From: an uncultured Methanosarcinales archaeon
GTDB lineage: Archaea > Nanobdellota > Nanobdellia > Woesearchaeales > GW2011-AR9
Direction of reading: 5' to 3'
Length of the DNA stretch: 64,000 bases
Assembly: GCA_964498285.1 (NCBI GenBank)
Contig: CAZCGN010000001.1
Coordinates: 175,916-239,915 of the forward strand
In this document: piece after piece, positions 1-18,384 of the stretch
Position numbering within the stretch: position 1 is the stretch's first letter
Layout of the letters: every line of letters starts with the position of its first letter
Translations under genes and position numbers: made by a program
Notes under the pieces: generated by a model
What the model saw: only the letters and a program-made list of their open reading frames with translations
Told to the model about the DNA's origin: nothing
Database searches by the model: none

Positions 1-2316
1 TCAGGCAAATCTTCTATCTTACTTGCGCTCGAGTTCGGTCTTTTTGGCGCTCTTAGGTCTGATTTAAGCGCAGATGCTCTTTTACGCAAAGGCACTATGA
101 CTGGCTCAGTTGAGCTTTCCTGCGAAATTGAGGGCAAAGAAATTATTCTATTTCGGCCACTCAAAAAAAACACGAATGGCATCAAACAAATGCCTGGACA
201 CATTGTTGTAAATGGCGCAAAAAAAGAGTTAACAGCGCTTGAAATGAAAGCAGAGATTATTGGCCATCTCAAATACCCTAAAGAGTTTATCACAAAATCA
301 AAAAATTATGTATTTAGATACACTGTATATTGCCCGCAAGAAGAGATGAAACGAATCTTGCAGGAGTCACCACAAGAAAGGTTAAACATTTTACGCAAAA
401 TCTTCAACATTGATAAATACAAAACGATCCGCGATAACTTACAGAATTATCTTAAGCAATATAGAAAAGATCTTCTAGTCCTTGAAACTAAAATTGAACC
501 ACTTGAAGGGTTGAAAAAGAACGTTCTTGAAATTGAGCAAAGAATAGATGCAACAGAAAAAGAACTTACCATAAAATTTGTAGAAAAACAAGCAATTGAA
601 AAGAAAGTTAACCTCTCTTACAAGATCTTTGAAAATGAACAGCGAGAACAAGCGTACTCTAAAGAGGTTCACCAAAAATCTGAGCAACTTATACAACTGA
701 ATAAAGAAATAAGAATATTACTCTCAAAAAAGCAAGAAAGAGCAAACCTTGCAAAATCAAAACTACAAGAGATACTTGTTGACAGCTCCCTTACAAAAGA
801 AAAAATTGAAGAAGAGTTAGCATCTCTTAGAGAAAAAAAGGTTGAATGGCTCAAAAAGCAATCTGAAGCGAAAACAAAGCTTGCTGCTCTGCAAGAAAGA
901 ATTTCTATACTTCATAAAGAAATTTCTCAAAAAGAGGATGTTGAAAATGAACATAATACTCTTGTAGAAAAACAGAAAGAACTCCAGAAGAATATTGCTC
1001 ACAAAAGTATTCTTCTGCAGGAAAAAGAGAATCTTACAAAAGAGATCTCAAAGTTAGACAGGGACTTATCTGAGAAAAATGCTTTATCCAAGAATGCTCA
1101 AACTATTTTAAAGGGCATTTCATCGCTTGAGAACTGCCCAACCTGCTTACAAATTGTAGGAAATGAACATAAAGAAGGTGTGTGTAGAAAAGAAGAGGAG
1201 AAGATCGAGAATCTTACTTGCGAAATTGAAATCATACAAGTTTCTAAGAATAATACAAATCACGAGCTTAAACATATTCTTGAAAGAATTGAGAAAATTG
1301 AGTTAGAAGAAAGGAAACAACATGAAGTTATTGCAAGACTTTCTACTCTTCAAGAAAAACTTTCATCGTTTGATCTCAAATCTCAAGAGATGAGAGAAAA
1401 CGTACAAAAAAACAACGAAATTATGGCTCAAATTAAGATTCTGAATCAAGATGGAGAAACAACAATTCCACGAATTGAGCAAAGAATTGAAACTCTTCAA
1501 GATTTCATGATCAAACTTGCACAGAAAAAAGAGTTAGAACTTTCGTATGAGAGATCTGTTACAGAGATTGAGGAGTTGAAATTGCGAGAAGAAAGGTATT
1601 GTGAGCGATTAGAAACAGTTCAAAAAATACTCTCTCTTTTTGAGAATAATACCTCCTATATCCTCAAGGCAAAAGAGATGCTTTCAGCCTCTCAAGAAAA
1701 AGAAAAAAGCCTCCTCTCAGAACACTCTGCACTCCTCTCAACACATAAGCATATTAAAGCTAGATTTGAAGAACTATCTCAAGAAGTGAAACGATTAGAG
1801 CTTCTTGCATCCACACTTCTTCAAAAACGCGAATTATATCGCTGGCTCAATTCTTTTTTCATGAAGCTTACCTACACTATTGAAAAAGAAGTTCTCTTAC
1901 GTATCTACCATAGGTTCAATGATCTTTTTACAGAATGGTTCGCATTATTGATGGATGAGAGTGGCATCTCATCAAGACTAGATGATGCATTCACTCCAGT
2001 AATTGAACAAAATGGTCATGAGATTGATTTTGCGCATTTGAGTGGAGGTGAGAGAACCGCAGTCTCTTTAGCGTATCGTTTGGCACTCAACAAAGTTATT
2101 AATGATGTGGTTCACACGATTACAACAAAGAATGTGTTGATATTAGATGAGCCAACAGACGGATTTTCATCTGAACAACTAGATAAAGTTCGAGATGTGT
2201 TGGATCGGTTGAATTTAGGACAGATTCTGATTGTCTCGCATGAAACTAAAATTGAAAGTTTTGTTGAAAATATTATTCGAGTAGAAAAAGTTGATCATGT
2301 GAGCAGAGTGTTTTAA
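1..2316 (+). CDS. rad50: Rad50/SbcC-family DNA double-strand break repair ATPase (5' end truncated by window edge)
   Basis: Frame 1 is open from nt 1 and encodes SGKSSILLALEFGLFGAL (Walker A GKSS) ahead of the first Met at 97. Long coiled-coil with a central CPTC zinc-hook (nt ~1133-1144). C-terminal signature LSGGERTAVSLAYRLAL followed by Walker B/D-loop LILDEPTDGFS. Confidence 0.8.
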   Translation, partial: SGKSSILLALEFGLFGALRSDLSADALLRKGTMTGSVELSCEIEGKEIILFRPLKKNTNGIKQMPGHIVVNGAKKELTALEMKAEIIGHLKYPKEFITKSKNYVFRYTVYCPQEEMKRILQESPQERLNILRKIFNIDKYKTIRDNLQNYLKQYRKDLLVLETKIEPLEGLKKNVLEIEQRIDATEKELTIKFVEKQAIEKKVNLSYKIFENEQREQAYSKEVHQKSEQLIQLNKEIRILLSKKQERANLAKSKLQEILVDSSLTKEKIEEELASLREKKVEWLKKQSEAKTKLAALQERISILHKEISQKEDVENEHNTLVEKQKELQKNIAHKSILLQEKENLTKEISKLDRDLSEKNALSKNAQTILKGISSLENCPTCLQIVGNEHKEGVCRKEEEKIENLTCEIEIIQVSKNNTNHELKHILERIEKIELEERKQHEVIARLSTLQEKLSSFDLKSQEMRENVQKNNEIMAQIKILNQDGETTIPRIEQRIETLQDFMIKLAQKKELELSYERSVTEIEELKLREERYCERLETVQKILSLFENNTSYILKAKEMLSASQEKEKSLLSEHSALLSTHKHIKARFEELSQEVKRLELLASTLLQKRELYRWLNSFFMKLTYTIEKEVLLRIYHRFNDLFTEWFALLMDESGISSRLDDAFTPVIEQNGHEIDFAHLSGGERTAVSLAYRLALNKVINDVVHTITTKNVLILDEPTDGFSSEQLDKVRDVLDRLNLGQILIVSHETKIESFVENIIRVEKVDHVSRVF

Positions 2317-3185: not shown

Positions 3186-4595
3186 TTACTCTGCCAGCAT
3201 GGTTTGAAAAGTTGCAATATCACAAAGGGCACCAGTTGTATTATATGCTGCTCGTGCCACTTTCAGCCTACCATGCTGTTGAATTGCCCTCCCAACTACT
3301 TGTCGCCCGATTTCATAACCAGCTCCATACATTGGACCAACTAAGGGATGTGCAGCCCAACCCCACACCTTTGTAGGCAAAGCGCCAGTTAAAGCATACA
3401 TTTCTTCACAATCTCTCTTTATTGCTTCCTCTCCAATCCCTTTAACTTGATGAAGAACAGGCCCATCATGTTTTCCTGCATCTAGTAGATCCTCCATCGC
3501 ATATTGAATTTTAATATCAATTGGTTCAACATCAAAAAGTGTAGCTATTACTGTGTATGCTTCTTCCCGAGTATCAAAAAGGAGATCTAATGCATTCTGT
3601 GCAACACCCTCCCATAGGGTCACTTGCGGACTACACATTGTTGGCATACTTGCTTCAACGCCCAGGCCCGATGCAAGATCTGTTGCAACAGCATGAAAGT
3701 AATGTCCTGGCATGATCTCATGTAAGCAGAGTGAAACCAAAGAGAGAAGTGTCATTTCATATTCGGTGTTATATTCAAAAAGAGCTCGTAAAGCCGGTCT
3801 TCCATTCTCTTTAGCTCCACCAAAATATGCCTGAGAGCCAGTAACATGCGGTTTCCCTTCAAATGTATGCATCTCAAAATTAAACCCGTCAAAAGGAACT
3901 TCCTCAAGCTTTCCCCAAGGGTGAATTGAAGCAAGCTGCACGTTCATTGGAACAATTAATCTTTCAAGAGCAAGTGGTGTGACTTTATTCAAAATTCTTC
4001 GAATTTCAGTAGGGATTTGAGCGGATTCAAGTTTTCCATGCTCGCTATTCCATGCTGTTGCTCTATCAACAAGATAACCTTTTTCAAAACCTCTCATTTT
4101 AAGGAGAGCCGCAAGTCTTTCTCTTCGTAAATGTAACTGAGTGTTACCTAATATTGGACGCATAGTTCCCGCAGCGTATCTTTCCATGAATTCAGGCATT
4201 TCAACATCTGAAACACCTGCTAATGATAAGCCAGTATTTAATGCAACCTCTAAACTAATTGCTAGATTTTGTATAAAGAGAGACCTGTGCCAAGGAAGGC
4301 CTCTTGTTTGACCAATTATTCTTGAAGGAAGCTCTCGCAAAGAATACTTTTGAACAAAAGCAGCAACATCTTGATCTCTTCCTTCTCCTTTCAAACGAGT
4401 AACTCCTCCTACTTCCATTAATTCTGCAGCAAAGTTATCTTCATAAACAGGCGGTGTTTCAAGATCCTCATCAGACCAAGGTTCTGCGATAAAATGTGCC
4501 CCGCCACTTGGATGACGAAAGTCTCCCCCGTGAAGAAGATCTGTACCTACAATAAGAGCTCCCAAATCTTCTTCCCAAGTCTGTTCAAATGGCAT
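3186..4595 (-). CDS. DUF885-family putative metallopeptidase
   Basis: 469 aa containing HEIMPGHYFH, resembling the DUF885 HExxPGHH zinc-binding motif. No canonical M32 HEGGH motif is present. Confidence 0.45.
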   Translation of the reverse strand: MPFEQTWEEDLGALIVGTDLLHGGDFRHPSGGAHFIAEPWSDEDLETPPVYEDNFAAELMEVGGVTRLKGEGRDQDVAAFVQKYSLRELPSRIIGQTRGLPWHRSLFIQNLAISLEVALNTGLSLAGVSDVEMPEFMERYAAGTMRPILGNTQLHLRRERLAALLKMRGFEKGYLVDRATAWNSEHGKLESAQIPTEIRRILNKVTPLALERLIVPMNVQLASIHPWGKLEEVPFDGFNFEMHTFEGKPHVTGSQAYFGGAKENGRPALRALFEYNTEYEMTLLSLVSLCLHEIMPGHYFHAVATDLASGLGVEASMPTMCSPQVTLWEGVAQNALDLLFDTREEAYTVIATLFDVEPIDIKIQYAMEDLLDAGKHDGPVLHQVKGIGEEAIKRDCEEMYALTGALPTKVWGWAAHPLVGPMYGAGYEIGRQVVGRAIQQHGRLKVARAAYNTTGALCDIATFQTMLAE

Positions 4596-4641: not shown

Positions 4642-7134
4642 TCACATAAACCCCACCAAACCCTTCTGCGCGCCTTTGCCCAATAACTCATCTTCATCCA
4701 CTCCAAACACATCAAAAATTGCTTGAATGGCTGGAAGAACTTGGTGTGTAAGATAGTACTGTGCATCATACTCGCCTTCCTGTATGTCAATTGGAATTTG
4801 AGCACGTTCACGAATGATACCTTTGCCCTTTCCCACAACATACGAGATTATCGTTCCTGCCCCAACTCTGTATCCTGCTTCCTGCATTTTCTGTGCAACT
4901 TTAACATGAGGACCAATTGCTTTGTATTTAGAAAGGTCACGCGTTAATTTAGTTTTAATAATCAACTTTTCTTTTGCAATCCTACCAGACAGTAACTTTT
5001 TAATCATTTTCTGAACATACACTATTGCTTCATCCTTCTTATCAGATAACACAAGGTCAAGAACTTTTGTTTGGATTTCTTTTCCAATTTCTGACCAGTT
5101 ACGTCTCACCGCTGCAAACCCAGTTACTTTTAGATTTCCCTTTGCATCCATTAAGGCATACTTCTTTTTAGCGCCCTTAGTCGTTCCTTTAATTGCAACA
5201 AACAGCGCGCGAGGAAAATAGCCTTCATATTCAAGCTCCATAAGGCCAGGAAGTGTCTTATTGATTTTCTTCATGAAATTCAGAGCATCTTTCTCTTTTT
5301 TTTCTCCTAATACAAAGAACACACTATCAGTATCGCCATATAACACTTCAAATTTTTCTTTTTTTGCTTTTGCAATAGTTTGCTTGATGTAATTACGTGC
5401 ATACGCCGTTGTGGACGCTGCACTTTCAAACGAGTACCATCGTGCACCATAGAACGCCAAATATCCATAAAATGAATTTGCTAAGATCTTAAACGCGTAA
5501 CTTCGCGCTTCTAAATAGTCAGTCTTCTTCCCCTTCTTTTTATGTTCTTTAATTTCTTGCTTAATCTTTGATCGTTTGGTAATAATATCGGCTAAGATTT
5601 CTGGTAAGAAGGCTGGCGTATCCGAAAACCAATATTGCTTTCGTTCTGGAACAGATATCTTCTTCCCGCCAGTAGCTTTAAATGATTCGGGACTCAAATT
5701 ATGAGAACTTATAATTGTTGGGTACAATGATCTAAAATCAAACACAACTACATCTTTGTACAATCCTGGTTTTGGTGAGTAGACAAACGCTCCTTGAATA
5801 CTTTCATTCATTCGTTCTCGAATTTCATCATCATCAGGCTTGTTTGGAGCAAGAACAGTACGCTCTATTGCACGTCTCAGAATATAACTCTCAACTAATC
5901 GTGAAAAACGCATACGTGACACATCGAATGCTGGAAGGCCAACGGTTTTTGTAAACTCAATTATATCAAATAACAGTAATGTACATAGATCAAATGTAAG
6001 ATGAGCATCCTCCAAGTTATACTTACAAAAATCTTCCAATTTCGCAGCATTATTTGAATCCCAAGATGGTGCAAGTTCTTCAAGATTCACAACATGCTTT
6101 TTGGAGCCCAATAATTCATGTGCTACATTATCAAGTTTGAAGCTATCTGTCTTTAGGTTTTGCCCAAAAATGTAACGAACAAATTTGAACACATCTAAAT
6201 GCAATGTGCCAACTATTTTTGTTTCAGCAGGACGCCCACCTTGACGTTTACGTGCAAAAAGGTTTTCGCCTCGCACGCCAAGGTCTAATTTGACATCAAG
6301 CAAACGTGCACGCGTACTAATATAGGGGAAATCAAACCCATCTGTGAAATAGCCAGTAATGATATCTGGAGAGAGTTTTTTCACAAATGTAACAAATGCC
6401 TCAAGCATTTCCTTTTCTGTTGTAAACTGTTCAATATATGTTTGTGCATGTTTAAATTTTTTCCAAGTAAACACCTTACGATAGGTTTTTGATCTTTTTT
6501 TCCCATACAACCCAATCATCAAAATTGGATTTTTCTCAGGATTAATCTCTCGTTTTTTTGCATACGTTTCAATATCAACTGCAAGAATGTTGTATCTTCC
6601 TGAATCATTAACATCTTTTTGAGTCAGTTTACTTGCTTGAAACACAGGGATTCTAAGATGGGCATCTTCTGTGAACTCGCCTTGAGCTTCAATAAGAGTC
6701 ATTGGCGTTATTTGCAGATCACGCAAGTATCTGTGAACAAAAAGAATATCTCTTTCATAACACGTAACACCCCAACTTTCAATTTCTTTAGCAAGGGCAG
6801 GAACCGCCTTAGGATAATTTGCAGAAATCTTGTAGAATTCTTGTGATTTTCCAAGCAATTCCTTTGTAACCTTTCCAAACGAAAGAACTTTAGCTTTATA
6901 GCTTTTTGTTGAAACTTCAAGGCCTTTAAGTTTTTCTTCAAACTTTGATTTTGCAACACCCTTAGTTGTTGCATAAAAAATGGGGACATGTTCATGAACT
7001 ACACAAATCTTTTTTCCGTTCGTATCACGACCATATGAATATACATACGTGTGAAGGTTGCCATTTGAATCTTCTTCTACTTTATATTCAAAATCATAGG
7101 GGTAAAATAAGAGCCGCGTCATACGAGGTTTCAA
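4642..7134 (-). CDS. polB: Family B DNA polymerase
   Basis: 830 aa. Exo I motif in ILAVDIETYA, pol motif A DFRSLYPTIISSHNLSPE and motif C VLYGDTDSVFF. Motifs are contiguous and length is normal, so no intein. Confidence 0.9.
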   Translation of the reverse strand: MKPRMTRLLFYPYDFEYKVEEDSNGNLHTYVYSYGRDTNGKKICVVHEHVPIFYATTKGVAKSKFEEKLKGLEVSTKSYKAKVLSFGKVTKELLGKSQEFYKISANYPKAVPALAKEIESWGVTCYERDILFVHRYLRDLQITPMTLIEAQGEFTEDAHLRIPVFQASKLTQKDVNDSGRYNILAVDIETYAKKREINPEKNPILMIGLYGKKRSKTYRKVFTWKKFKHAQTYIEQFTTEKEMLEAFVTFVKKLSPDIITGYFTDGFDFPYISTRARLLDVKLDLGVRGENLFARKRQGGRPAETKIVGTLHLDVFKFVRYIFGQNLKTDSFKLDNVAHELLGSKKHVVNLEELAPSWDSNNAAKLEDFCKYNLEDAHLTFDLCTLLLFDIIEFTKTVGLPAFDVSRMRFSRLVESYILRRAIERTVLAPNKPDDDEIRERMNESIQGAFVYSPKPGLYKDVVVFDFRSLYPTIISSHNLSPESFKATGGKKISVPERKQYWFSDTPAFLPEILADIITKRSKIKQEIKEHKKKGKKTDYLEARSYAFKILANSFYGYLAFYGARWYSFESAASTTAYARNYIKQTIAKAKKEKFEVLYGDTDSVFFVLGEKKEKDALNFMKKINKTLPGLMELEYEGYFPRALFVAIKGTTKGAKKKYALMDAKGNLKVTGFAAVRRNWSEIGKEIQTKVLDLVLSDKKDEAIVYVQKMIKKLLSGRIAKEKLIIKTKLTRDLSKYKAIGPHVKVAQKMQEAGYRVGAGTIISYVVGKGKGIIRERAQIPIDIQEGEYDAQYYLTHQVLPAIQAIFDVFGVDEDELLGKGAQKGLVGFM

Positions 7135-7180: not shown

Positions 7181-7714
7181 TTACGGCCTTCGCCTCAATG
7201 ACTTAATCAAATAATTATCATCTTCATCTTTTTCCATGACAACTTCGCTTTCTTCACCATCAACTTCTACGACTTCTTTTTCTTCTTCCTCAACATTTAA
7301 CCCTTCAGTATTTGCAGTTATCTGGATAAATGCATCTTCCATTGTCGGTTCATCAAGTTCTTGTGGTGCCCACTCTAATGTAAGTCCATCATTTTCCTTT
7401 CGAGGGACTACATGCATAGAAAAGTGAGGAATACTTTGCCCTGCAGCTAACCCATTTTGTACAAATACATTTGTTCCAGTAGCTCCAAGGCCATCAAACA
7501 CAGACATTCCAATTTTGTTTACGATATCTGTCATTTTAACAAGCAATGTATGTGGAATCATCTCTAAGATAGTATGATGTTCTTTTGGGATGATGGTAAT
7601 CTGCCCATCGTTGAACGCCATATACGAGACAAATGCAACCACTTCTTTGTCTTGATAGATAATTTGGGCAGGCTCTCTTCCTGCTACAATATCACAATAG
7701 TCGCATGTTGCCAT
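7181..7714 (-). CDS. HIT-family (histidine triad) protein with acidic C-terminal tail
   Basis: CDYCDIVAG N-terminal motif and histidine triad PHFSMHVVPR. C-terminus EEEEKEVVEVDGEESEVVMEKDEDD. Confidence 0.7.
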   Translation of the reverse strand: MATCDYCDIVAGREPAQIIYQDKEVVAFVSYMAFNDGQITIIPKEHHTILEMIPHTLLVKMTDIVNKIGMSVFDGLGATGTNVFVQNGLAAGQSIPHFSMHVVPRKENDGLTLEWAPQELDEPTMEDAFIQITANTEGLNVEEEEKEVVEVDGEESEVVMEKDEDDNYLIKSLRRRP

Positions 7715-8481
7715 TATTTGAATAAATTTGCAATGTCATCTAAACTTGCATCAACCTCATCTTCGTTTTCATCTTGCTCAGGTTCTTCATCATCTGTTTC
7801 GTCGTCTGATTCGTCAGTATCATCTTCTACTTCATCATCCCCTTCAATATCAGCATCTTCTCCTAACTCGCTAGATTCATCTTCAGGTTCTTCTATTTCT
7901 TCTTCAGGCTCATCTTCCTCTACTTCTGGTTCTTCTTCTACAGCGCGAGGAAGCGTTTGTTGTGTTTCAATTCCCATAAGCCCCTTGAAATGATTCTGAA
8001 CTTTTGTAAGAACTTGTTTTTGAACTTCTAAATTAACACCTTTCTCTTCAAGTTGGAACAAGCCATCAGCATCTTTTCGAGGGATGAGATGTATCATAAA
8101 ATGTGGCGCCCTCTGTCCTGCTGCAAGACCATTTGCTATGAAAATATTCGTACCACCTGCTCGAAGACTTTTGAGCAGAATTTTAGAAAGAACTTTTGTT
8201 GTAACAAATAATTTCTCAAGTGTAGGGTCCGGTATTTGTGGCATAATACTAAAGTGCTCTTTAGGAATGATTAAACAATGCCCCTTAGTTGCGGGTCTAA
8301 TATCTAAGACAACAAGGCACGTTTCATCTTCATAGACTTTTTTAGAAGGAACTTTGCCATCAATTATTTGGCAGAAAATACATTGTTGCCGTTGAAGTTG
8401 CGCAATCTCCTCTGGAGACATATTTTTGAGCTTTTCTTCAAGCTCTTTACGCTGCTCTGGCGTTAGTTGTGAAGGATCCAT
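7714..8481 (-). CDS. HIT-family protein paralogue with long polyacidic tail
   Basis: CIFCQIIDGKVP and APHFMIHLIPRK histidine triad. About 75-aa Glu/Asp-rich C-terminal tail. Start overlaps the stop of the downstream HIT gene by 1 nt. Confidence 0.7.
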   Translation of the reverse strand: MDPSQLTPEQRKELEEKLKNMSPEEIAQLQRQQCIFCQIIDGKVPSKKVYEDETCLVVLDIRPATKGHCLIIPKEHFSIMPQIPDPTLEKLFVTTKVLSKILLKSLRAGGTNIFIANGLAAGQRAPHFMIHLIPRKDADGLFQLEEKGVNLEVQKQVLTKVQNHFKGLMGIETQQTLPRAVEEEPEVEEDEPEEEIEEPEDESSELGEDADIEGDDEVEDDTDESDDETDDEEPEQDENEDEVDASLDDIANLFK

Positions 8482-8534: not shown

Positions 8535-9140
8535 CTATATTCTGTATTCTATACCATCGGGCTGAACACTGGTTAACCTAGGAGATCTTTCAGACACATA
8601 TCCTGATTCTGGAGAGGCTGTTTCTAATCTAGGAAGTCCCCTAACGAAAGAAACTGGAAGTTCGGGTTTTCCTCCTGCTTTATAGACTACACCATTAGAA
8701 ACTAAACTATCTAACTCCGGACCATATTCTTCATCTCTTCCAGTATTTAGAAAGATAGTAGAGTCGGGACAGATTTCATTAATTCTTCTTGCTAGAGTTA
8801 GTCCTGAACCGGGATCATAATTATCTAAATCTACGTCACAAAGAACATATTCTGGTCGAAAGCCATCTTTTATTGCTTTGAGAGCATCGGCTGAATTTTC
8901 TCTAAATACGACTCCGTAACCCTTAGCCTTTGCAAGACCAATAACTACTTTGACAGCATCAGGCATATCATCAATTACCAAAACCGTTCCTTTTAAGATT
9001 CCATATTGTTCGTCTGCCTTCGGAGCAATCATAGCTGGGTCATCATCGAGAGTTTGCACTATAGGATCGTCGCCAAAGGCATACCCTGCTGGTCTTAAAT
9101 CTCCAAATGTTTGATTTCCGTCTGAATCCATTGTAATCAC
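8535..9140 (-). CDS. Response-regulator receiver (CheY-like) domain protein
   Basis: VLVIDDMPDAVKV...EYVLCDVDLDN pattern gives an acidic pocket plus a phospho-acceptor Asp. No output domain is recognised and no histidine kinase lies nearby. Confidence 0.45.
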   Translation of the reverse strand: MITMDSDGNQTFGDLRPAGYAFGDDPIVQTLDDDPAMIAPKADEQYGILKGTVLVIDDMPDAVKVVIGLAKAKGYGVVFRENSADALKAIKDGFRPEYVLCDVDLDNYDPGSGLTLARRINEICPDSTIFLNTGRDEEYGPELDSLVSNGVVYKAGGKPELPVSFVRGLPRLETASPESGYVSERSPRLTSVQPDGIEYRI

Positions 9141-9227: not shown

Positions 9228-10055
9228 TCACTCTTCTAAGAATTTTTGCACGTTCTTAAAGTGCATTTTTACAAATTGTTTATACGGCAGCTTCCGCCCC
9301 TTAAGCTCATCAAGTGCCCATTTCACATGAGTAGAGCCCTTAGGTACTGCAAATGTTGCTTGCCTTGAAAGAAAGTTAATTTGTTCAAGAGCAGCGGCTC
9401 GAGCCAAGATTGATGCTGCTGCCACCTCAACAAACTTCTGCTCAGCCTTCGTTTCGCGAATATCACCCACACTACAACCAGGGTACTTATCTACTGCATG
9501 AACGCCTGGTTTAAGGTACTTTGCAGCTTTTTTGTGTAATTTGTTAAGAAGCTGCGTTACACCTTTCTCTTTATTATACTTAATTGGAGGTAGACTTATA
9601 ATTTGACACTCCGCTACTTTTTTTACTTCTTGTGCCATCCGCAGTATCTCTTTATCAGCAAGTGCCTTGCTATCTGCAACGCCAATATCAAGAAGTTTTG
9701 TTCGAATCTCATCATTTGCTTTAACAGCAGCAACTACAAGCCCACCAAACGTATCGCCCTTGAGGGATTCGTCTGAACCAATTACCCATCCACGCTCTTT
9801 TCTAAACGTGATTGGTGTAACTTTTGTTCCTATACCAAAACTATGCAACTGAGCTGAGGTTTTATCAATAGCTCCCGAATCTCCTTGTAGAAGTAGTTTC
9901 CCGGAGTTATAGAGAATCATGAGTACTCGTTTTTTAATTCCCTTAAAGAAACGAGCCTTTTCGTGTACCGTTCGAATTTCAAGTGTTTTGAATTTATGCT
10001 TAGAGCAAAACCGCGCAAGATCTTCTACATCAACCTCTGTAAAGACTACCATCAA
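9228..10055 (-). CDS. RNase HIII-like ribonuclease H (RNase H2 superfamily) with N-terminal extension
   Basis: IGSDESLKGDTFGGLVVAAV matches the RNase HIII catalytic motif GSDEVGKGDYFGPLVVAA rather than the RNase HII DEAGRGP motif. A downstream ADSK motif is present, and the ~80-aa N-terminal domain is consistent with the HIII TBP-like domain. Confidence 0.5.
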   Translation of the reverse strand: MMVVFTEVDVEDLARFCSKHKFKTLEIRTVHEKARFFKGIKKRVLMILYNSGKLLLQGDSGAIDKTSAQLHSFGIGTKVTPITFRKERGWVIGSDESLKGDTFGGLVVAAVKANDEIRTKLLDIGVADSKALADKEILRMAQEVKKVAECQIISLPPIKYNKEKGVTQLLNKLHKKAAKYLKPGVHAVDKYPGCSVGDIRETKAEQKFVEVAAASILARAAALEQINFLSRQATFAVPKGSTHVKWALDELKGRKLPYKQFVKMHFKNVQKFLEE

Positions 10056-10099
10056 GAAGAAACTAGAATTCTAAGGAATTTAAATGTTTTGGGTAAAGA

Positions 10100-10492
10100 C
10101 TAAAGCAATTCTCCTATCGCTGCAACAAATTTTCGAGTGGCATTCATTTGCAAAGGATGACCATATACTGTTGAATCTATATGTGCATCATAACAGGTCC
10201 CTGACATTGGAAGACCATAGCCCACAATTCTTGCTCCAGCATATTTTGCTCGTAACACCCCCCACACATTAAACGTTGTTGGGTTGAGAACTAAAGAAAA
10301 AGGACCCGGAACATCTCGAAGCTGAGCTTCAAGTAGAGGAGTGATTTCATCTATCCTACCACTCTGCGCAGCAAGAACTTGTACCCCAAAACGAGCATCG
10401 CTTGTTGAAAGAACTTGCTCAATTCCTGCAGTAAGAAGCGCTGCTGCAGTATCTCCTTTCTGACGAACAATAAGAACGTTAGGTAATGGCAT
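10100..10492 (-). CDS. Hypothetical protein (GC-richer than neighbours)
   Basis: 130-aa ORF between the two RNase H genes on the same strand. No motif recognised. Confidence 0.3.
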   Translation of the reverse strand: MPLPNVLIVRQKGDTAAALLTAGIEQVLSTSDARFGVQVLAAQSGRIDEITPLLEAQLRDVPGPFSLVLNPTTFNVWGVLRAKYAGARIVGYGLPMSGTCYDAHIDSTVYGHPLQMNATRKFVAAIGELL

Positions 10493-10504
10493 TTCAAAGA
10501 GAAA

Positions 10505-11185
10505 TTATTGATCCTGTTTTAAAAAGTCTCCCATCGTTTTTTGCTTACCTTTCTCAACAGCGTTCTTGTAGCTTTGCCACTCGCACCGAAAGATATGTTT
10601 GAACGTTGCATAATGTTCATTCAAAAAGTTCTGTGTTCGAACATCACTCATATATCCTGAACCAAAATCATGCCCAACTTCTTTTTTGATATGGTCAATT
10701 GCGCGATCACGTATCACTTTTGCAATGATTGATGCTGCAGCAACCACAAAATGGCGCGCATCTGCCTTATGTTCCATAACAACTCTTGTTGAAGAACGAA
10801 CACCATCAGAAAGTCTACTTACAAAATAGTGTTTATAATTTTCAAGATTAATACTTGGACAATCAACAATAACTGTATCAGGATTAAGTTCACTTATCAT
10901 GCGTGCTGAAGTTTCAGCTTCAAGCCAGTTAAGATTCAAATTATTATCGCGCAAAGCATGGTCAATTGCATCTGCCTCAATTACTTCTACTCGAAAATCC
11001 TCAACTATTTCGTGGATCCTATCAAACATCTCTTCACGCGCTTCTCGAGAAAGTAGCTTACTATCTTTCACGCCAAGCCATTCTAACTGTTTATCTTGCT
11101 CTGGTGTTGCAACTAGTGCTACCATTACGAGTGGACCAATGACGCAACCCCGACCAGCTTCATCAATTCCTGCTTTAAGACCCAT
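10505..11185 (-). CDS. rnhB: Ribonuclease HII
   Basis: GIDEAGRGCVIGPLVMVAL catalytic motif and GVKDSKLLS. 226 aa, typical for archaeal RNase HII. Confidence 0.85.
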   Translation of the reverse strand: MGLKAGIDEAGRGCVIGPLVMVALVATPEQDKQLEWLGVKDSKLLSREAREEMFDRIHEIVEDFRVEVIEADAIDHALRDNNLNLNWLEAETSARMISELNPDTVIVDCPSINLENYKHYFVSRLSDGVRSSTRVVMEHKADARHFVVAAASIIAKVIRDRAIDHIKKEVGHDFGSGYMSDVRTQNFLNEHYATFKHIFRCEWQSYKNAVEKGKQKTMGDFLKQDQ

Positions 11186-11231: not shown

Positions 11232-11516
11232 CTACAACCCAAACGCATTTGTGAACTCACGCATTCGCCTAAATTCAGCTAAAAATCCAAGACCTTTATC
11301 AGTTATATGTACTATCTTTGAAGAACTCTTTTTTGTTTTAACTTCTTCAATATGTATCATCTCTTTTGCGAGCAACTCCTCGACATACGAGTTCAACAAC
11401 TTATGTGAAAGGTTTGATTTGTACATGAGGTGCGTGGGCTTAATTTTTCCTCCCTTATTTTGAATTGCAACAAGGATGTCAAAAATAAGTTCCAATCGTG
11501 ATCTACGTCCTGCCAT
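11232..11516 (-). CDS. Small winged-helix DNA-binding protein (putative transcription regulator)
   Basis: 94 aa. ELIFDILVAIQNKGGKIKPTHLMYKSNLS pattern matches archaeal winged-HTH regulators. Confidence 0.4.
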   Translation of the reverse strand: MAGRRSRLELIFDILVAIQNKGGKIKPTHLMYKSNLSHKLLNSYVEELLAKEMIHIEEVKTKKSSSKIVHITDKGLGFLAEFRRMREFTNAFGL

Positions 11517-11519
11517 AAT

Positions 11520-12230
11520 TTACCTTTTTGTTGTTACCAATCTATACACGTACAATATAAGTAGGAATCCTAACAGTAAGAAGGCTTCTCCAAAAAAGTA
11601 GAAGACATCACTTACAAAAAGGAATGTGAAAAAGAGTTGTGCTAAAAGCAAGAACATGAATGCAATCATAACAAGGTATGAATTACTATTTCTATCACTG
11701 TTAAGATAGTTCTTATAATAGTTAAGCACAATAAGTGAAATTAACACAGTCATTGTTAAGGGAAAGACAAAATACTTGAACGTTGCAAGTACTGCAATTA
11801 ATCCCACAAGATACACAAATAAACCAATTTGTGCAAGCTCATGAAATCTATGAAGACGCGCACGCGACTTTTGTGACACCAAAAAAAGCAGTAGAAAGGC
11901 ACCTAGAAAGCTTGCCATCTCTAAGAAGAACCCTCCCCTATAAAAGAGGTCCATGATCGATACTCGAGATTGTGTTACTGGAAGTAAAACTTGATGTGCC
12001 GTTTCACGAAGTGGATGAAAATATAATACTCCAAACGTGATAAGTTTGAAAACAAACGCGCAACTTATCAAGACAAATGCAAAAGAGAAATACTTAAATT
12101 TGTTTTCGGAACTTATCTTGTATACTCGCCAACTGTATCCGGCAATGAGCAATGCTATTACAAGCGCTACAGCATCAAAAATCAAATCAAGTCCGTTGAA
12201 CCAGCTAGGGGTTGTAAACAATGCAAACAT
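11520..12230 (-). CDS. Polytopic membrane protein
   Basis: 236 aa with about 7 hydrophobic helices. No motif recognised. Confidence 0.4.
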   Translation of the reverse strand: MFALFTTPSWFNGLDLIFDAVALVIALLIAGYSWRVYKISSENKFKYFSFAFVLISCAFVFKLITFGVLYFHPLRETAHQVLLPVTQSRVSIMDLFYRGGFFLEMASFLGAFLLLFLVSQKSRARLHRFHELAQIGLFVYLVGLIAVLATFKYFVFPLTMTVLISLIVLNYYKNYLNSDRNSNSYLVMIAFMFLLLAQLFFTFLFVSDVFYFFGEAFLLLGFLLILYVYRLVTTKR

Positions 12231-12496: not shown

Positions 12497-14701
12497 TTAT
12501 TCGAGTGGCACTCCGCTCCATAACGTCCAATCTTCAGAAGGAGTGTATGGTTGGAATGAAAAGTACGGTGGTGCTGTTTGTCCAAAATGATTATACTGTA
12601 CTTGCCCCCAGCGTGTGCTCTCGCCACGTGCGCTTCCAAACGAGCCGGTTGTGCCATACACTGGTGAATCGAATAATCTCCAGGTTTTCATAACCGAATG
12701 AAACCCTCCAAGGTCTGTTGTAAAATCTGCCCCAGGTTCAACAATTAAATCCCCATCATATCCTTCTTCTTTTAAGATTCGAATCATTGCTTTAATTGGT
12801 GCATTTCCTTCACCAGGTGCAAGATGCTCATCTTGATATCCATAATTATCATCTAAATGAACGTGCCCGATCATATCTTCCTTAGCAAGCTTTTTGAGCA
12901 TATCATCACTCCACTGATCAAACGCTTTATGGTTCTCTTCAATGGTTGCTTTAGGATCCCCTTTCCAATATTTTCGCCACATGTTAAAATGGCCCGTATC
13001 AAACGTTATTTTGATCGTATCTTTTGCAAGTTTTCGCGCCTTTTCAACATGCATTCCTCTTTCTTTTTTAAGAACCTCAACCATTTTCTCTCGAGAACCT
13101 TTAATGATTTTAATAATTTCATCTGGATGCGCACCGTACGCTTCAGGAAACAAGTTTTCAAGACCCAAAAACAAGTCTCGCTTAAGTTCACCTTTTTTAC
13201 GTAACTCCTCGTTCTTATCGTGCGCGTACACAGCAGCTCGCGCGTACGAATCATAACTTTCTCGAAGAGCGTATGTCTCAGCGCTTTCAACATGTTTCAT
13301 TGTCTCAACACTTTCCTGAGCCTGTGCCCACTGTGAGGCTGAAGCTTCTTGTGATTGCCGTAATCCTCGTTTAAGAATATCTAACTGGTTTTTGAGAATT
13401 TCATGAGGAAATTTTGCATCGGGAGGTACTAGCCCTGCAAAATCACGATCAACAACTTTTTTGAGTTTCCACTTCTCTTCCTCATCTGTTTCAGCATAAA
13501 TTTGTGTATAGAGTTTGAGTGCTTTTTCTAGCTTTTCTTTCTGCTTAAGTTCATTTTTGAAATCCCGAGTGTACTGTAGAGCCCATCCACGTGCATTCCC
13601 TGCATTCGTTTCTAACGTGTTTAAGATATATGCTTCTTCTGCTCTAACACGTACCTGTTCTTGATCTACTGCCCGACCTTTATCCCTATCATAAAACCGG
13701 TACCATTTACTCTCTTTCCACACTTTCTCACTTGCATTCTTGTTTTTTCGCCAAAATGCCTTTGCTTGATCAGTTAGTTCATCAGCTTCTGTCACTAAAT
13801 CTTTCCACTCCATTTGATGAATCTCAAACTCTCCACCTTCATCGCCAATTTTAGCATTAAACTTTGGAACACGAACTGAAGGATCGATCTTATTTCCCCA
13901 ATAATCTACATAGTCACCCTGATGAACAGTTACTCCATTCTCATCAACATACCAACTTTTTCCCCTACTCTTTTCCATTCCAAGTTCCCACATATCTTCA
14001 TTCTTTTTCTCGAACCGGTTCCACACAGGCCGTGCAACTGATCTTCCTTTTCGCGCTTCAGCAACAAGCCCACCAGTTCTGGTATCAACCACCCTATAAC
14101 TTGCCCTCTCTTCTTCTCCTCTGAACGATTCAAATTTATCTTTCCATTTACCGTCGGTGTTCCATGTTGAATCACTAATTGGCCTATGAAACTCACCAGT
14201 ATGTACTACTACAGGACCACCCCTTCCAACATCAGCTGCAAATTCAATTGCACGCTGGATTTCTTGCATGGAATTCGCTTTTGATTCACGAGAAAAGTTT
14301 CCTTGTCTATCTTGACCTGCAAGACCAAAGACCCCAACAGAAGTGTGCGTTGTAAAATCCATCCTATTTGCAAGGGCTGCTTCACGAAGTGCCTGACGTT
14401 GCTTTTTACCATACATCCCTGCAGTATGACCCTGGCCACCACCCTTACCCATCCCCATAAAGCCAAGTTCTAATTTTTTTGCTCCTGACCGCATTTTAGC
14501 TAAGATTGCAGGAACGTTAGGTACTGGCCCAAGACCAAAACTCATCCCAAAATCGCCAGTAGAAAGTCCTACGCTTCCGGTGTTATGAGAATGGTTATGA
14601 GAAGAATGATCGTGCGTGTCTGATGGCGCTTCAATTGTAGAGTTTGGAGCATACTCTCTATCCATTGCATGAAAATAATTGCCACCACCTGTTTCTACCA
14701 T
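12497..14701 (-). CDS. Xylose-isomerase-like TIM-barrel (AP endonuclease 2 / sugar-phosphate isomerase) protein with very large internal insertion
   Basis: The N-terminal region (KKLELGFMGMG...AADVGRGGPVVVHTGE) and C-terminal region (GHVHLDDNYGYQDEHLAPGEGNAPIKAMIRILKEEGYDGDLIVEP) look like the two halves of a xylose-isomerase-like barrel. They are separated by a ~430-aa K/E/W-rich insertion. His-rich N-terminus HDHSSHNHSHN. Confidence 0.5.
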   Translation of the reverse strand: MVETGGGNYFHAMDREYAPNSTIEAPSDTHDHSSHNHSHNTGSVGLSTGDFGMSFGLGPVPNVPAILAKMRSGAKKLELGFMGMGKGGGQGHTAGMYGKKQRQALREAALANRMDFTTHTSVGVFGLAGQDRQGNFSRESKANSMQEIQRAIEFAADVGRGGPVVVHTGEFHRPISDSTWNTDGKWKDKFESFRGEEERASYRVVDTRTGGLVAEARKGRSVARPVWNRFEKKNEDMWELGMEKSRGKSWYVDENGVTVHQGDYVDYWGNKIDPSVRVPKFNAKIGDEGGEFEIHQMEWKDLVTEADELTDQAKAFWRKNKNASEKVWKESKWYRFYDRDKGRAVDQEQVRVRAEEAYILNTLETNAGNARGWALQYTRDFKNELKQKEKLEKALKLYTQIYAETDEEEKWKLKKVVDRDFAGLVPPDAKFPHEILKNQLDILKRGLRQSQEASASQWAQAQESVETMKHVESAETYALRESYDSYARAAVYAHDKNEELRKKGELKRDLFLGLENLFPEAYGAHPDEIIKIIKGSREKMVEVLKKERGMHVEKARKLAKDTIKITFDTGHFNMWRKYWKGDPKATIEENHKAFDQWSDDMLKKLAKEDMIGHVHLDDNYGYQDEHLAPGEGNAPIKAMIRILKEEGYDGDLIVEPGADFTTDLGGFHSVMKTWRLFDSPVYGTTGSFGSARGESTRWGQVQYNHFGQTAPPYFSFQPYTPSEDWTLWSGVPLE

Positions 14702-14784: not shown

Positions 14785-15678
14785 TTACGCTTCTGTAAAA
14801 AATTCATTTTCTAAAAAGTTTATTGCTTCTGATACTCTTGTTTCTAAACCTGCAACATAATCGTGCCAAGGAACATGAACCGGATCTTCTTCCGTTTGGA
14901 GGTGAGTTGCCAAAAAATCGACATGCCCGCCCCCTACAATCACAGCCTTCTTCCCTTCAAGTTCAGAACTATATGATTTAAGACTTGGTAAGATATACTC
15001 AACATCACGCGCTCTTCGAAGAAATGACCCAAAAGCCCTTCCAACTAAAAGGACTCTTTCTACAAAATCATCTGGAAAAACTCGATCTAACTCACCTATT
15101 GCTAGAGTTACTGTTTCTACCAAGTGGTCGACATCTAACCCAAAATATCCCGAACAGAGATCACTCTTATTCTTCCAATGTCTCCTAATATTCCTCTCAA
15201 AATCAGCAAAGCTTCCTGTATGAAGCGTGTGGAAAGATCTAAAAATATCATATGAGAAAAAAGCATCTGATTCTACTCCCAACCTAGTTGCAAGCACAGG
15301 CAAATTTGTCCTTTCTTCAAGATAATAAACTGTCCCAGTATAAAGCCTTCGAGCTTCCGCCTCAAAATTTCTTCGATGTTCGTCATTTATTGCAACGACT
15401 GTAGCTGAACCTTCCATAAGAAGGTGATCAGAAGACCTAATTTCTCTTCTAAACCGATAATATCTTTGAGAACTTCGTTTGAATTTCGCTTGATGATCCA
15501 CTCCTATTAAAAGAACATCATCTACTCCAACATATCTTGGAAGAGTATTGCCTCGCAGTTTTCTTCTAGTTTGTCCCACACAAGTGCGAAACCAACTGTT
15601 TTTTATAAGAATGTTCCCAACAAACAAAAATTTATAAATTTGCAAAAACCTTGCCCTCTTATGAGTAAAGAACGCCAT
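14785..15678 (-). CDS. Hypothetical protein (start uncertain; overlaps divergent NUDIX gene)
   Basis: 297-aa ORF with no confident motif. Confidence 0.3.
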   Translation of the reverse strand: MAFFTHKRARFLQIYKFLFVGNILIKNSWFRTCVGQTRRKLRGNTLPRYVGVDDVLLIGVDHQAKFKRSSQRYYRFRREIRSSDHLLMEGSATVVAINDEHRRNFEAEARRLYTGTVYYLEERTNLPVLATRLGVESDAFFSYDIFRSFHTLHTGSFADFERNIRRHWKNKSDLCSGYFGLDVDHLVETVTLAIGELDRVFPDDFVERVLLVGRAFGSFLRRARDVEYILPSLKSYSSELEGKKAVIVGGGHVDFLATHLQTEEDPVHVPWHDYVAGLETRVSEAINFLENEFFTEA

Positions 15679-16105: not shown

Positions 16106-16801
16106 CTAATTCTTATCATACCAGTTACTCATATCTTTTTTACCAGGGCTATTTCCATGATACATAATATCTAAACTTTTAGCAATTGCTTGTGATGCAG
16201 ATGCTGCGGATGCAGCTTCTTTTGTCATAGAATAATCGCCTACATCAGCATCTTCAACCTTCTTTTCAATTGCTGAACTAAGCTGCATGAGGCGCTGTTG
16301 TTGTGTTTGAGAGATGTACCCACTCTCTTTTGCAGTATCATACACTTGAACTATTTCTTGATACAAATTTTGCATTGGAACTTGCGAGAGTTCCATGATA
16401 TACGCCGTTTTAAGTGGATCGAATCCAGGATCTATTGCGCCAGGCGGAATCTCAACATCACGAAGACTTTCTTCTAAATCTTCCTCTTTCTTTGTAGATC
16501 CACGGCGCTCTTCTTGCTCACCCAGCTTCTTATCAATCGCTTTTTTCCAGGTACTTGCATCTTCCCCGCGCTGCGCTTTAACAATGATCTTTCCTTCCTC
16601 ACTTAATGTAGAAGTATCGCGCGTTGCAACCTGAGGGATTGGCACTTTATCTTCCCAAGCTTGTTTATCTTTTATCTCATCTTCAGCTTCATGCATAAGG
16701 GCTTCTGCCTCTTGTATCTCCTTTTCACGCTCTTTTTTGAGTTTCTTCAATCGTGTAAGACGTTCTTCTGCCGTGAGATTTTCTACTTCTTCTTTGACCA
16801 T
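16106..16801 (-). CDS. Hypothetical highly charged protein
   Basis: 231 aa with a K/E-rich N-terminal coiled coil. Co-directional with the next gene. Confidence 0.3.
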   Translation of the reverse strand: MVKEEVENLTAEERLTRLKKLKKEREKEIQEAEALMHEAEDEIKDKQAWEDKVPIPQVATRDTSTLSEEGKIIVKAQRGEDASTWKKAIDKKLGEQEERRGSTKKEEDLEESLRDVEIPPGAIDPGFDPLKTAYIMELSQVPMQNLYQEIVQVYDTAKESGYISQTQQQRLMQLSSAIEKKVEDADVGDYSMTKEAASAASASQAIAKSLDIMYHGNSPGKKDMSNWYDKN

Positions 16802-16866: not shown

Positions 16867-18384
16867 TTACCACGTAATCATTCGATGAGCCTTTTTGAAC
16901 GTATGATATACCTGGAACGCTACAAACCCATGAAATTTGAGGGCATTTCCTTGCTTTTTTGGTTGGTATGCTTTAGCTGAAGAGGCCGCCGCTGCACCTT
17001 TCTTTTCAGGAGGGAGAAAATCACCAAACATTTTTCTAAATATACTTTGGTTTGTTTTGCTTTTCGGCGTTTTCTTCTCTTCACCTTTATCTTCTGCTGC
17101 AGCTTTTTTTGCTTGATCTAAGTACTTTTTAAGATCTCCACCAAGAGCATCCATCGATTCTTGGATTGAACCAGAAATATCACCAATGAGCGCGAACACT
17201 TCTTTCTCCTTCAGTTTCTTATAACTCATCACTTGTTCATAGTTCCAATCATAAAGACGTATTTCCATGTCCATCTTTCCAACATGAACAGGCCCGCGCT
17301 GATATCCTTCTTGTACAAATTTCATGTGAGGCCTAGTCCTATAATTAAATGTTACAAGAACACATGTTTGTGAACCCGGATTGTACCCCAAAAACTCAAC
17401 ATCCATCATTGCTCCTTCAAATGATGACACAAGGTCGGCTGAGTCTTGGTGCTTTCCTTTCATACTCAAACGTTGCGCAGTTTTAAGATATGGTTTAATC
17501 CATGTAATATACATCTGGATAATTTCATAATGCTGGTTAAGATAATTGAGCATGAATTCTTTTCGTGTCTCATGTTCTTGATGTGTTCTCTGTTTCCACA
17601 TGGAAAAATGATTCAAATGTCTTTTAAGCACTCTGAGAACCGCATCGTTAAATCCTTTCAAGTTATCTACATACGTTTCAAGTTCGTTTTCTCGTAGTGG
17701 AGGAGTATCAAAAAATAGGTCTGGTAACGTTACAAACTCTAGCTCTCGGGCCATTCCATAGACTGAAGCTGGAGACTTTCCTCCACCTTGCACAAGATCA
17801 ATGAAAATCCCTTTAAGTGTGATTTCATCTTTCTTTCGTCGCTGTTCAATTGGCTTACTAACTTCAGCCTTAGATTTACGATAGTACGCTAACCTCTCAT
17901 CTAGGATTCGCAGTTCACGAATCATTTGAAAGAGTTCTTTGACCATCTTTCCAATTGTTGCAAGATACTGGCCAACTTTATCTTGCTGTATCCCCAATCG
18001 TTGTTGAGTCACGCCAAAAAACGCTGAATTTTCTGAAGCTGAAAAACTATCTTCTAGCTTATCAACTATTGGGAAAAACATACGAAGCGTGTCAAGAACC
18101 CAAAAATAAGGTTCCTCAATACTCAAGTCTGGTACTTGGTACGAAATTCTGTGTTTAAGAAGAGGTGCTGGAAAATCTACTTCAATAAAACTGTATCGTT
18201 GATGTTCTGCCCATTCTTGATGTACTTTTTTGAGCAGTTCCCTATACCTTTTTGGATCTTTAAGCTGTGCTACTCCATTCTCATCATATTTGTAATATTC
18301 ATAGAATGTATCGGTTGCTTTTCCACCTTTGTACATCCCCTTAACAAATCCATGCTCTGCAAGCAGCCTCTTATAATCTACCAT
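16867..18384 (-). CDS. Hypothetical protein
   Basis: 505 aa with no recognisable motif. Lys/Ala-rich C-terminal tail. Confidence 0.3.
   Translation of the reverse strand: MVDYKRLLAEHGFVKGMYKGGKATDTFYEYYKYDENGVAQLKDPKRYRELLKKVHQEWAEHQRYSFIEVDFPAPLLKHRISYQVPDLSIEEPYFWVLDTLRMFFPIVDKLEDSFSASENSAFFGVTQQRLGIQQDKVGQYLATIGKMVKELFQMIRELRILDERLAYYRKSKAEVSKPIEQRRKKDEITLKGIFIDLVQGGGKSPASVYGMARELEFVTLPDLFFDTPPLRENELETYVDNLKGFNDAVLRVLKRHLNHFSMWKQRTHQEHETRKEFMLNYLNQHYEIIQMYITWIKPYLKTAQRLSMKGKHQDSADLVSSFEGAMMDVEFLGYNPGSQTCVLVTFNYRTRPHMKFVQEGYQRGPVHVGKMDMEIRLYDWNYEQVMSYKKLKEKEVFALIGDISGSIQESMDALGGDLKKYLDQAKKAAAEDKGEEKKTPKSKTNQSIFRKMFGDFLPPEKKGAAAASSAKAYQPKKQGNALKFHGFVAFQVYHTFKKAHRMITW

Follow-up and report, generated by a model that had tools for sequence, protein, structure and literature searches.

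RNase HII and an RNase HIII-type enzyme of an undescribed archaeal subfamily encoded in one block of a Woesearchaeota/Nanoarchaeota-type genome

Reviews still place ribonuclease (RNase) HIII in "a few bacteria" and describe archaea as generally having RNase HII only. A block of genes on contig CAZCGN010000001.1 of an uncultured archaeon (assembly GCA_964498285.1, positions 175,916 to 239,915; this whole stretch of 64,000 nucleotides [nt] is hereafter the window) encodes an RNase HII and, two genes downstream on the same strand, a protein resembling RNase HIII, and raises the question of how one archaeon came to hold both enzymes and how they might share the work. An earlier note, made from the sequence of the window, had suggested that such coexistence would be uncommon and that a GC-richer open reading frame (ORF) of 130 amino acids (aa) between the two genes may mark a transferred segment. 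We consider it quite probable that the block instead encodes a pair of type 2 RNases H that divide the labour in a DPANN (Woesearchaeota/Nanoarchaeota-type) archaeon, the HIII-type enzyme belonging to an old, lineage-wide clade that we refer to as the LKG clade.

The three ORFs (RNase HII, the 130-aa ORF [ORF130] and the HIII-type gene) were found in one co-directional block on the minus strand, at the coordinates that had been claimed for them, separated by 12 nt between the HII gene and ORF130 and by 44-47 nt between ORF130 and the HIII-type gene, and the quoted catalytic motifs were present in both enzyme ORFs. Family-level E-values ranged from 1e-35 to 1e-52, which excludes chance, and Rfam and tRNA scans returned nothing inside the interval. 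Judged by its profile scores and motifs, the first gene is the canonical archaeal RNase HII that the earlier note took it to be: the ORF, which contains GIDEAGRGCVIGP, scored 176 bits against NCBIfam TIGR00729 (cut-off 123) and 154 bits (5e-45) against Pfam RNase_HII, and carries GIDEAGRGC with its GRG loop as well as the tyrosine of the GSGY motif. Its C-terminal QKTMGDF is nearly the same as QKTLDDF, the PCNA-interacting protein (PIP) box of Archaeoglobus fulgidus RNase HII, which a crystal structure shows in complex with PCNA (PMC3089482), and a C-terminal Q..[LIM]..[FY] was found in 59 of 61 HII orthologues from related loci. A TATA-like TTTATATTT was read by eye ~25 nt 5' of the HII ATG.

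The HIII-type ORF (9228-10055) runs to 275 aa from a TTG, with an ATG directly after it at 10052. As homologues of the protein all begin MVVF and the 274-aa version is identical to a database protein (P0001), the ATG at 10052 was taken as the true start. The ORF carries GSDESLKGDTFGGLVVAAV at residues 93-111, with ~85-90 residues before the motif. Its best NCBIfam match was rnhC (TIGR00716), at 123 bits (E = 1.4e-35) and over positions 26-284 of a profile of 284, whereas the highest-scoring HII model reached 43 bits; rnhC was likewise the top NCBIfam match in 30/30 aligned family members (best E 1.3e-45), N-domain included. Pfam RNase_HII, the sole Pfam domain over threshold, spans residues 92-269. 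A sequence search of the PDB placed the four solved RNases HIII first for the single protein and for the family profile alike, the profile matching them at 1e-26 to 1e-29 and no RNase HII better than 1e-16. In an AlphaFold2 model built from 30 homologues (mean predicted local distance difference test score [pLDDT] 84.6), residues 2-73 adopted a beta-alpha-beta-beta-beta-beta-alpha order (pLDDT 83-93), and Foldseek aligned the full length to RNases HIII only (E 3e-17 to 1e-15, 276-316 columns), the best match to an RNase HII being 2e-9 over ~200 columns. The Pfam model of the HIII N-domain, DUF3378, was matched by 21/30 family members (best 1.9e-7) and reached a sub-threshold 17 bits on the window protein itself. 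Within this domain the stretch YxSGKLLLQG matches YRSGKVLFQG of Geobacillus stearothermophilus (Bst) RNase HIII (family motif SGK(L/V)L(L/F)QG), and H31, R35, Y49 and G58 align with H28, R32, Y43 and G52, the hybrid contacts of the enzyme from Thermovibrio ammonificans (Ta; PMC4132731). The gene encodes an enzyme of RNase HIII type from an archaeal subfamily that has not been described before, and both the HIII-type catalytic block and the TBP-like N-terminal extension that the earlier note had recognized are borne out by these profile, PDB and fold matches.

Residue conservation was counted in 60 representatives of the clade (cluster representatives) and in 48 canonical RNases HIII. The catalytic acidic residues, whose alignment had been proposed as a check, are all in place: D95, E96, D189 and E205 align with Ta D78, E79, D180 and E206, the first three being present in 60/60 clade representatives and position 205 being E in 55 and D in five. 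The fourth carboxylate is Asp in both HII outgroups, and the tetrad is thus DEDE as in HIII and not DEDD. Y160 and N161 of the phosphate pocket were likewise found in 60/60 (Y160 aligning with Ta Y147), and K99, G100 and D101 were invariant. D101 aligns with Ta E84, the residue after the loop, acidic or Ser in RNases HIII, which reads two RNA 2'-OH groups (PMC4132731), and falls at the site of yeast P45D, a change that makes RNase H2 behave like H3. The column of the HII GSGY tyrosine holds Ser241 in the HIII-type protein, and RNases HIII have Ala or Ser there. With the carboxylates, K99, G100, D101, Y160 and N161 invariant, the protein is much more likely to be a working nuclease than a dead one, as far as conservation can predict.

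The loop that follows the first two carboxylates is the feature that sets the clade apart from canonical RNases HIII. Through its backbone amides the GXG loop contacts the 2'-OH adjacent to the scissile phosphate, and both glycines were reported as strictly conserved in RNases H3 (Figiel & Nowotny 2014; PMC4132731). Here the loop reads L98-K99-G100, in a clade-wide motif DE-x-L-K-G-D-T-F-G-G; position 98 was Leu in 59 and Ile in one of the 60 clade representatives and Gly in 47/48 canonical HIII. In an ungapped alignment L98 corresponds to G21 of Thermotoga maritima, yeast G42 and human RNASEH2A G37; the structure of T. maritima G21S has disturbed binding of metal B, and the change of human G37 results in severe Aicardi-Goutières syndrome (AGS). 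Further clade-specific positions (fixed in ≥90% of the clade and shared by ≤10% of canonical HIII) were T102 (canonical Y, F, L or V), P192-G193-C194 right after D189, T167, N171 and E32. The replacement of G98 and Y/F102 by L98 and T102 looks, from the alignment, like a size-compensating swap (small plus large to large plus small).

To establish how widely this protein occurs, its homologues were retrieved by a word-indexed search (3276 sequences); the organism names among the best 120 (55-84% identity, 265-334 aa) were only Woesearchaeota, Nanoarchaeota, Nanoarchaeia or "archaeon". These homologues carry the label "ribonuclease HIII" from the Joint Genome Institute (JGI), and the named NCBI entries are "hypothetical protein". 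When one genome of each GTDB species was scanned for the pattern, a confirmed relative was found in at least 165 species-level genomes, 80 of which were listed and their loci compared; all 80 were Woesearchaeota/Nanoarchaeota-type metagenome-assembled genomes (MAGs). The title "uncultured Methanosarcinales archaeon" is borne by many of the listed assemblies (L002, L006, L008 and ~35 other loci) and, because these have the same HIII and gene order as Woesearchaeota and Nanoarchaeota MAGs, is probably a placeholder or a misassignment. An exhaustive search of 50%-identity representatives gave 73 clusters under E 1e-30, followed by same-clade fragments down to ~90 bits and then by proteins at 33-38% identity that are ~290-320 aa long. 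Exactly where the list of scores breaks, the motif switches as well: all high scorers have DE-x-[L, rarely I/F]-K-G-D-[T/S]-F-G, and almost all full-length proteins below the break have DE-x-G-x-G, those named coming from an archaeon of the Thermoplasmatota and a bacterium of the Planctomycetota and bearing the annotation RNase HIII. Some short proteins of the clade (P0160, P0170, P0174, P0187, P0197 and others; 194-218 aa) start directly with the catalytic domain, have the motif at residues 5-23 and are either contig-end gene fragments or forms without the N-domain; a few representatives are longer, at 331-371 aa.

In a neighbour-joining (NJ) tree of 110 sequences (263 trimmed columns, Kimura distances, two HII outgroups), the LKG clade was recovered in 189/200 bootstraps, and canonical HIII were monophyletic to the exclusion of the LKG clade in 1/200, which suggests that the clade arose from within HIII diversity. 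No donor lineage could be identified in this tree, and a look-up of 20 cluster representatives yielded a source name for six: three organisms (Thermoplasmatota, Planctomycetota, Woesearchaeota), the rest "ribonuclease HIII". The phylogeny that had been proposed as a way to the donor thus recovered the clade and named no donor, and from these data we would at most infer the direction of an ancient transfer. The LKG clade is old and lineage-wide, and the HII-HIII pair is inherited and is the rule within this lineage. The expectation that the two enzymes would seldom meet in an archaeon agrees with the literature, which treats archaeal HIII as rare (one of 27 archaeal genomes, that of Methanosphaera stadtmanae, with HII and HIII, in Kochiwa 2007; two putative archaeal sequences, including one from Methanosphaerula palustris, seen as possible transfers in Brindefalk 2013), but does not hold for the lineage of the window.

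Gene order was compared by tblastn with the proteins of the window against the 80 related loci, with a flank of 4 kb around HIII. The conserved order comprises a 734-aa AP_endonuc_2 protein, a 236-aa membrane protein, an HTH_45 regulator, HII, a variable junction, HIII, a second variable junction, two HIT-domain genes and a family B DNA polymerase (PolB). HII lies upstream of HIII in 62/80 loci, on the same strand in 61 of these 62 and within 90 nt in 16. Both HIT genes were found downstream of HIII in 56/80 loci and PolB in 32 (a number limited by flank length), and upstream genes in the same order were HTH_45 (45/80), the membrane protein (44/80) and the 734-aa protein (20/80). Both junctions flanking HIII are hot spots of gene turnover, with gaps from 36 nt to 3.5 kb (loci L002-L081). 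The HII-HIII junction holds a winged helix-turn-helix nucleotidyltransferase with a weak HepT-like partner (a toxin-antitoxin-like pair) in ~10 loci, a methyltransferase in five, an alpha/beta-hydrolase-like gene in three (by eye) and many singletons; in the HIII-HIT junction an EEP-family gene stands on the opposite strand in 12 loci. The window has a receiver-like gene at the latter place (Response_reg, 31 bits against a cut-off of 30.2; Gly/Asp/Pro-rich) that had no tblastn match in the 80 related loci, and weak receiver-like genes occur at the same place in L002 and L006 (23% identity, E 0.002). The closest relatives carry unrelated genes where the window has ORF130 and the receiver-like gene. 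Distant members of the clade (L083, L084 and L085, the loci of P0149, P0150 and P0179) have another context, namely an RFC small subunit, PRC, NMD3, a signal-peptidase-like gene, HIII, SMC and FEN1 (recognized by XPG_N/XPG_I), with HIII 1-3 nt from the signal-peptidase-like gene. No HII was adjacent to HIII in these three loci, so the HII-HIII linkage characterizes the sub-lineage of the window and not the clade as a whole; in the other lineages, FEN1 and RFC as neighbours fit a role in replication. The gene upstream of HIII in the distant members was also considered as a cryptic HII and rejected, since its motifs are signal-peptidase-like by eye and its only match is a weak one to Peptidase_S24. 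The features of the locus are listed in Table 1.

Table 1. Positions of the genes, domains and motifs of the locus, numbered from the first nucleotide of the window
Feature	Position	Strand	Remarks
RNase HII	10505..11185	-	226 aa; TIGR00729, Pfam RNase_HII
PIP-box-like motif QKTMGDF, near HII C-terminus	10523..10543	-	likeness to A. fulgidus motif
Orphan 130-aa ORF (ORF130)	10100..10492	-	starts 12 nt past HII stop; no family match
RNase HIII-type enzyme, "LKG" subfamily	9228..10052	-	274 aa from ATG 10052
N-terminal TBP-like hybrid-binding domain, residues ~2-75	9831..10052	-	modelled fold, DUF3378
Type 2 RNase H catalytic domain, residues ~88-275	9231..9794	-	D95-E96-D189-E205 tetrad; Y160/N161 phosphate pocket
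Signature D-E-S-L-K-G-D, Leu in place of first GXG/GRG glycine; D101	9753..9773	-	alignment columns
Receiver-domain-like gene in HIII-HIT junction	8535..9140	-	201 aa; Pfam Response_reg
Two tandem HIT-domain genes	7714-8481, 7181-7714	-	Pfam HIT 2.9e-20 and 1.8e-16
Family B DNA polymerase (PolB)	4642-7134	-	conserved downstream neighbour
HTH_45 regulator	11232-11516	-	Pfam; conserved upstream neighbour
236-aa membrane protein	11520-12230	-	conserved upstream neighbour
734-aa AP_endonuc_2/xylose-isomerase-like TIM-barrel protein	12497-14701	-	Pfam; conserved upstream neighbour

The composition of the block was assessed by GC content, GC at third codon positions (GC3) and tetranucleotide distance against all same-size windows of the 64 kb. 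ORF130 is indeed GC-richer, as the earlier note had observed (43.5% against 38.1% for the window, the 96th percentile), with the excess confined to codon positions 1 and 2 (GC1 0.62 > GC2 0.45 > GC3 0.237); its GC3 is as low as that of its neighbours, and the protein is rich in Ala, Gly, Leu and Pro and poor in Lys. Tetranucleotide distance placed HIII at the 66th percentile, ORF130 at the 43rd and the whole 9.2-10.5 kb segment at the 82nd. ORF130 had no Pfam or NCBIfam match, found only itself among 5.8 billion proteins, left no trace in the 80 related loci and had no paralogue in the window, a search of all six frames of the window and of 81 loci also finding nothing; that it and the receiver-like gene are paralogues was considered and rejected (BLASTP E 4.1), and its single-sequence AlphaFold2 model (pLDDT 40) was uninformative. 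Three-base periodicity and an uninterrupted 393 nt in a genome of 38% GC speak for a real coding gene, probably a lineage-specific orphan, and the 12-nt gap to HII suggests that the two are co-transcribed. ORF130 would then be an unrelated orphan that landed in a turnover-prone junction and marks no transfer bringing in HIII.

If HIII and the GC-richer ORF130 had together come from bacteria in a recent transfer into an HII-bearing archaeon, the mainly bacterial occurrence of RNase HIII in the literature, the GC content of ORF130 and the restriction of ORF130 and the receiver-like gene to this genome would all find an explanation. Against this, HIII has the same neighbours in dozens of species-level relatives, its tetranucleotide composition and that of ORF130 are unremarkable, the GC3 of ORF130 is host-like and the flanking orphans are without any bacterial homologues; the closest sequences outside the clade are only 35-38% identical and include an archaeon (Thermoplasmatota) as well as a bacterium (Planctomycetota). 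None of the marks of a genomic island (atypical composition, patchy presence, foreign closest homologues) was found for the 9.2-10.5 kb segment, and recent horizontal transfer was rejected on GC, GC3, tetranucleotide distance and synteny in the 80 loci. The transferred segment proposed in the earlier note is therefore extremely unlikely, HIII being present in at least 165 genomes of the lineage and HII lying upstream of it in 62 of the 80 loci.

Several points weigh against interpreting the block as two RNases H with divided labour. The score of the window HIII-type protein is under the curated TIGR00716 cut-off of 161.2, the split between HIII and HII was recovered in only 139/200 bootstraps of an NJ tree that is itself crude, the more distant clade members have no HII neighbour, and the conserved order of genes in related MAGs may stem from common ancestry rather than from a functional link. 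The compensation between L98 and T102 is read from alignment columns, not coordinates; the activity of the HIII-type protein, like that of every other clade member, is predicted from sequence, and its role as a substitute for RNase HI is extrapolated from other RNases HIII to a genome known here from 64 kb. Finally, the protein breaks the GXG rule, its first glycine being Leu98, and Ser at the equivalent glycine leaves 2-8% of activity in yeast RNase H2 and causes human disease. The low rnhC score, together with RNase_HII being the only Pfam domain over threshold, would suit a divergent archaeal RNase HII duplicate with an unrelated N-terminal extension and no HIII at all. This is nonetheless very unlikely given the margin of the rnhC model over the best HII model, the Glu as fourth catalytic residue, the acidic residue after the loop and the absence of the HII tyrosine, the DUF3378 matches and the motif shared with Bst RNase HIII, the restriction of full-length Foldseek alignments to RNases HIII, and an NJ tree that groups the clade with canonical HIII and away from both HII outgroups. 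The earlier note had itself allowed for a plain HII duplicate without the HIII N-domain fold, and the data show otherwise. The altered loop bears on a different possibility, that the LKG protein is an impaired or repurposed HIII, either a factor binding hybrids or R-loops or an enzyme with changed substrate or metal preference. The effects of Ser at this glycine (residual activity in yeast, metal B in T. maritima, AGS) set beside Leu98 mean that reduced or altered activity is possible, and the reported strict conservation of the glycines in RNases H3 (PMC4132731) and the eight clade-specific positions, which cluster around the active site (L98, T102, P192-G193-C194), point the same way. Against impairment or repurposing stand the retention of all four carboxylates, K99, G100, D101 and Y160/N161 over 60 diverged representatives, the apparently compensatory exchange at positions 98 and 102, and the use of backbone amides for the 2'-OH contact, which a change of side chain need not abolish; we consider this rather unlikely. 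We would also give only a small chance to the bolder proposal that the LKG clade is a fourth kind of type 2 RNase H with a function of its own and the main hybrid-removing nuclease of much of DPANN, acquired or diverged anciently, with a loop rebuilt around Leu at the AGS glycine that confers a different substrate, metal or cleavage-site preference. Under this proposal the enzyme may also work with HII, PolB and the two nucleophile-less HIT proteins described below as a conserved replication/ribonucleotide-repair module.

Under the reading that we prefer, of two RNases H with divided labour, the GRG loop and GSGY tyrosine of HII would read the ribonucleotide-DNA junction and its PIP box, as the motif predicts, would tether the enzyme to PCNA; from established work we infer that HII would start ribonucleotide excision repair and aid primer removal. 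The HIII-type enzyme would grip an RNA/DNA hybrid through its TBP-like N-domain about one helical turn from the cut, would cleave within RNA runs at a DEDE two-metal site and would read RNA 2'-OH groups with D101 in place of the HII tyrosine. Its 2'-OH-sensing loop, L-K-G-D-T instead of G-x-G-D-Y/F, is probably repacked by the compensating swap and the clade-specific P-G-C after the third catalytic Asp. It may fill an RNase HI-like role on R-loops, Okazaki primers and longer RNA/DNA hybrids, because RNase HIII resembles RNase HI in its biochemistry and can stand in for it, RNases HI and HIII are largely mutually exclusive (PMC4132731, PMC1950709), and of the two enzymes HIII matters more to Okazaki maturation in Bacillus subtilis (PMC9719913). 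RNases HIII are characterized by cleavage of RNA/DNA hybrids in the manner of RNase HI and by a poor action on single ribonucleotides with Mg2+.

Both tandem HIT proteins have long acidic C-terminal tails and orthologues in L002-L081, and both are without the central His of H-x-H-x-H (PHFMIHLIPR and PHFSMHVVPR in the window); the central position was M, A, Q, S or L, and never H, in ~107 tblastn matches. In Fhit and Hint the central histidine of the triad is the catalytic nucleophile. From their motifs, the pair may be non-canonical or inactive HIT proteins. The only recognizable part of the 734-aa protein is AP_endonuc_2 at residues 555-656, a C-terminal xylose-isomerase-like TIM-barrel piece, and most of the protein has no family match. 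Elsewhere in the window, a 739-aa ORF (97-2316, plus strand) deviates most in tetranucleotide composition and shows a strong A-over-T skew; its sole match is a weak one to the SbcC/Rad50 Walker B, and it probably encodes a coiled-coil protein like Rad50 or SMC. Scans of the 64 kb for structured RNAs detected only a tRNA-His (GTG; 30684-30758, plus strand) and a stand-alone 5S rRNA gene (37342-37457, plus strand). Four ORFs of 231-505 aa, all on the minus strand (3186-4595, 14785-15678, 16106-16801 and 16867-18384), had no Pfam match at E ≤ 0.001.

The type of the enzyme and the JGI label of RNase HIII were known already; what is new is that the archaeal clade is so large and coherent, that it departs from the GXG rule in a fixed manner and that the window protein falls under the NCBI cut-off. 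A search of the available literature found no paper tying RNase HIII to DPANN, Woesearchaeota or Nanoarchaeota. A large, conserved clade of archaeal HIII in genome-reduced, probably symbiotic DPANN archaea echoes the concentration of bacterial rnhC in the reduced genomes of host-associated bacteria. The clade is also an experiment of nature: at the loop glycine that is mutated in RNASEH2A-linked disease it tolerates a bulky residue, which has become fixed, and the co-varying residues may show how a 2'-OH-sensing loop can be repacked. For annotation, the NCBI rnhC model misses the window protein and its named NCBI relatives stay "hypothetical". The basic picture of RNase H biology is unchanged.

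Among known systems, the bacterial RNases HIII (rnhC; 2D0A from Geobacillus stearothermophilus, 4PY5 from Thermovibrio ammonificans and 3VN5 from Aquifex aeolicus) gave the best sequence and fold matches and share with the LKG protein the TBP-like N-domain followed by a type 2 RNase H domain, the DEDE tetrad, an acidic residue behind the loop (D101, which corresponds to Ta E84 and to the Asp of Bst GTGD), Y160 (Ta Y147), the lack of the HII tyrosine and the N-domain contacts. The LKG protein differs from them in its identity of only 24-30%, in being ~25-35 residues shorter than the typical 300 aa, in its Leu for the first Gly of GXG, T102 for Y/F, G105 for P and P-G-C after the third Asp, in its score under the TIGR00716 cut-off and in its archaeal host. 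Archaeal RNases HII (e.g., Archaeoglobus fulgidus, 1I39/3P83) are like the HII of the window in the GRG loop, GSGY, the DEDD-type domain and the PIP box, whereas the HIII-type gene has an N-domain, Glu as fourth carboxylate and neither the Tyr nor the PIP box. The RNase H2 variants G37S (human AGS), yeast G42S and T. maritima G21S carry a side chain at the same loop position as L98; they are deleterious point changes in H2, however, and the Leu of the LKG clade is fixed in a natural H3-type clade together with co-varying positions. HIII from a Thermoplasmatota MAG (P0204) is of the GxG type, keeping a canonical GKG loop, and is only 37% identical to that of the window. In Methanosphaera stadtmanae (group C of Kochiwa 2007), HII and HIII coexist in an archaeal host, as they do in the window. 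In contrast, the HIII of this species and that of Methanosphaerula palustris are isolated cases that have been interpreted as possible transfers, and the HIII of the window belongs to a DPANN clade with conserved synteny.

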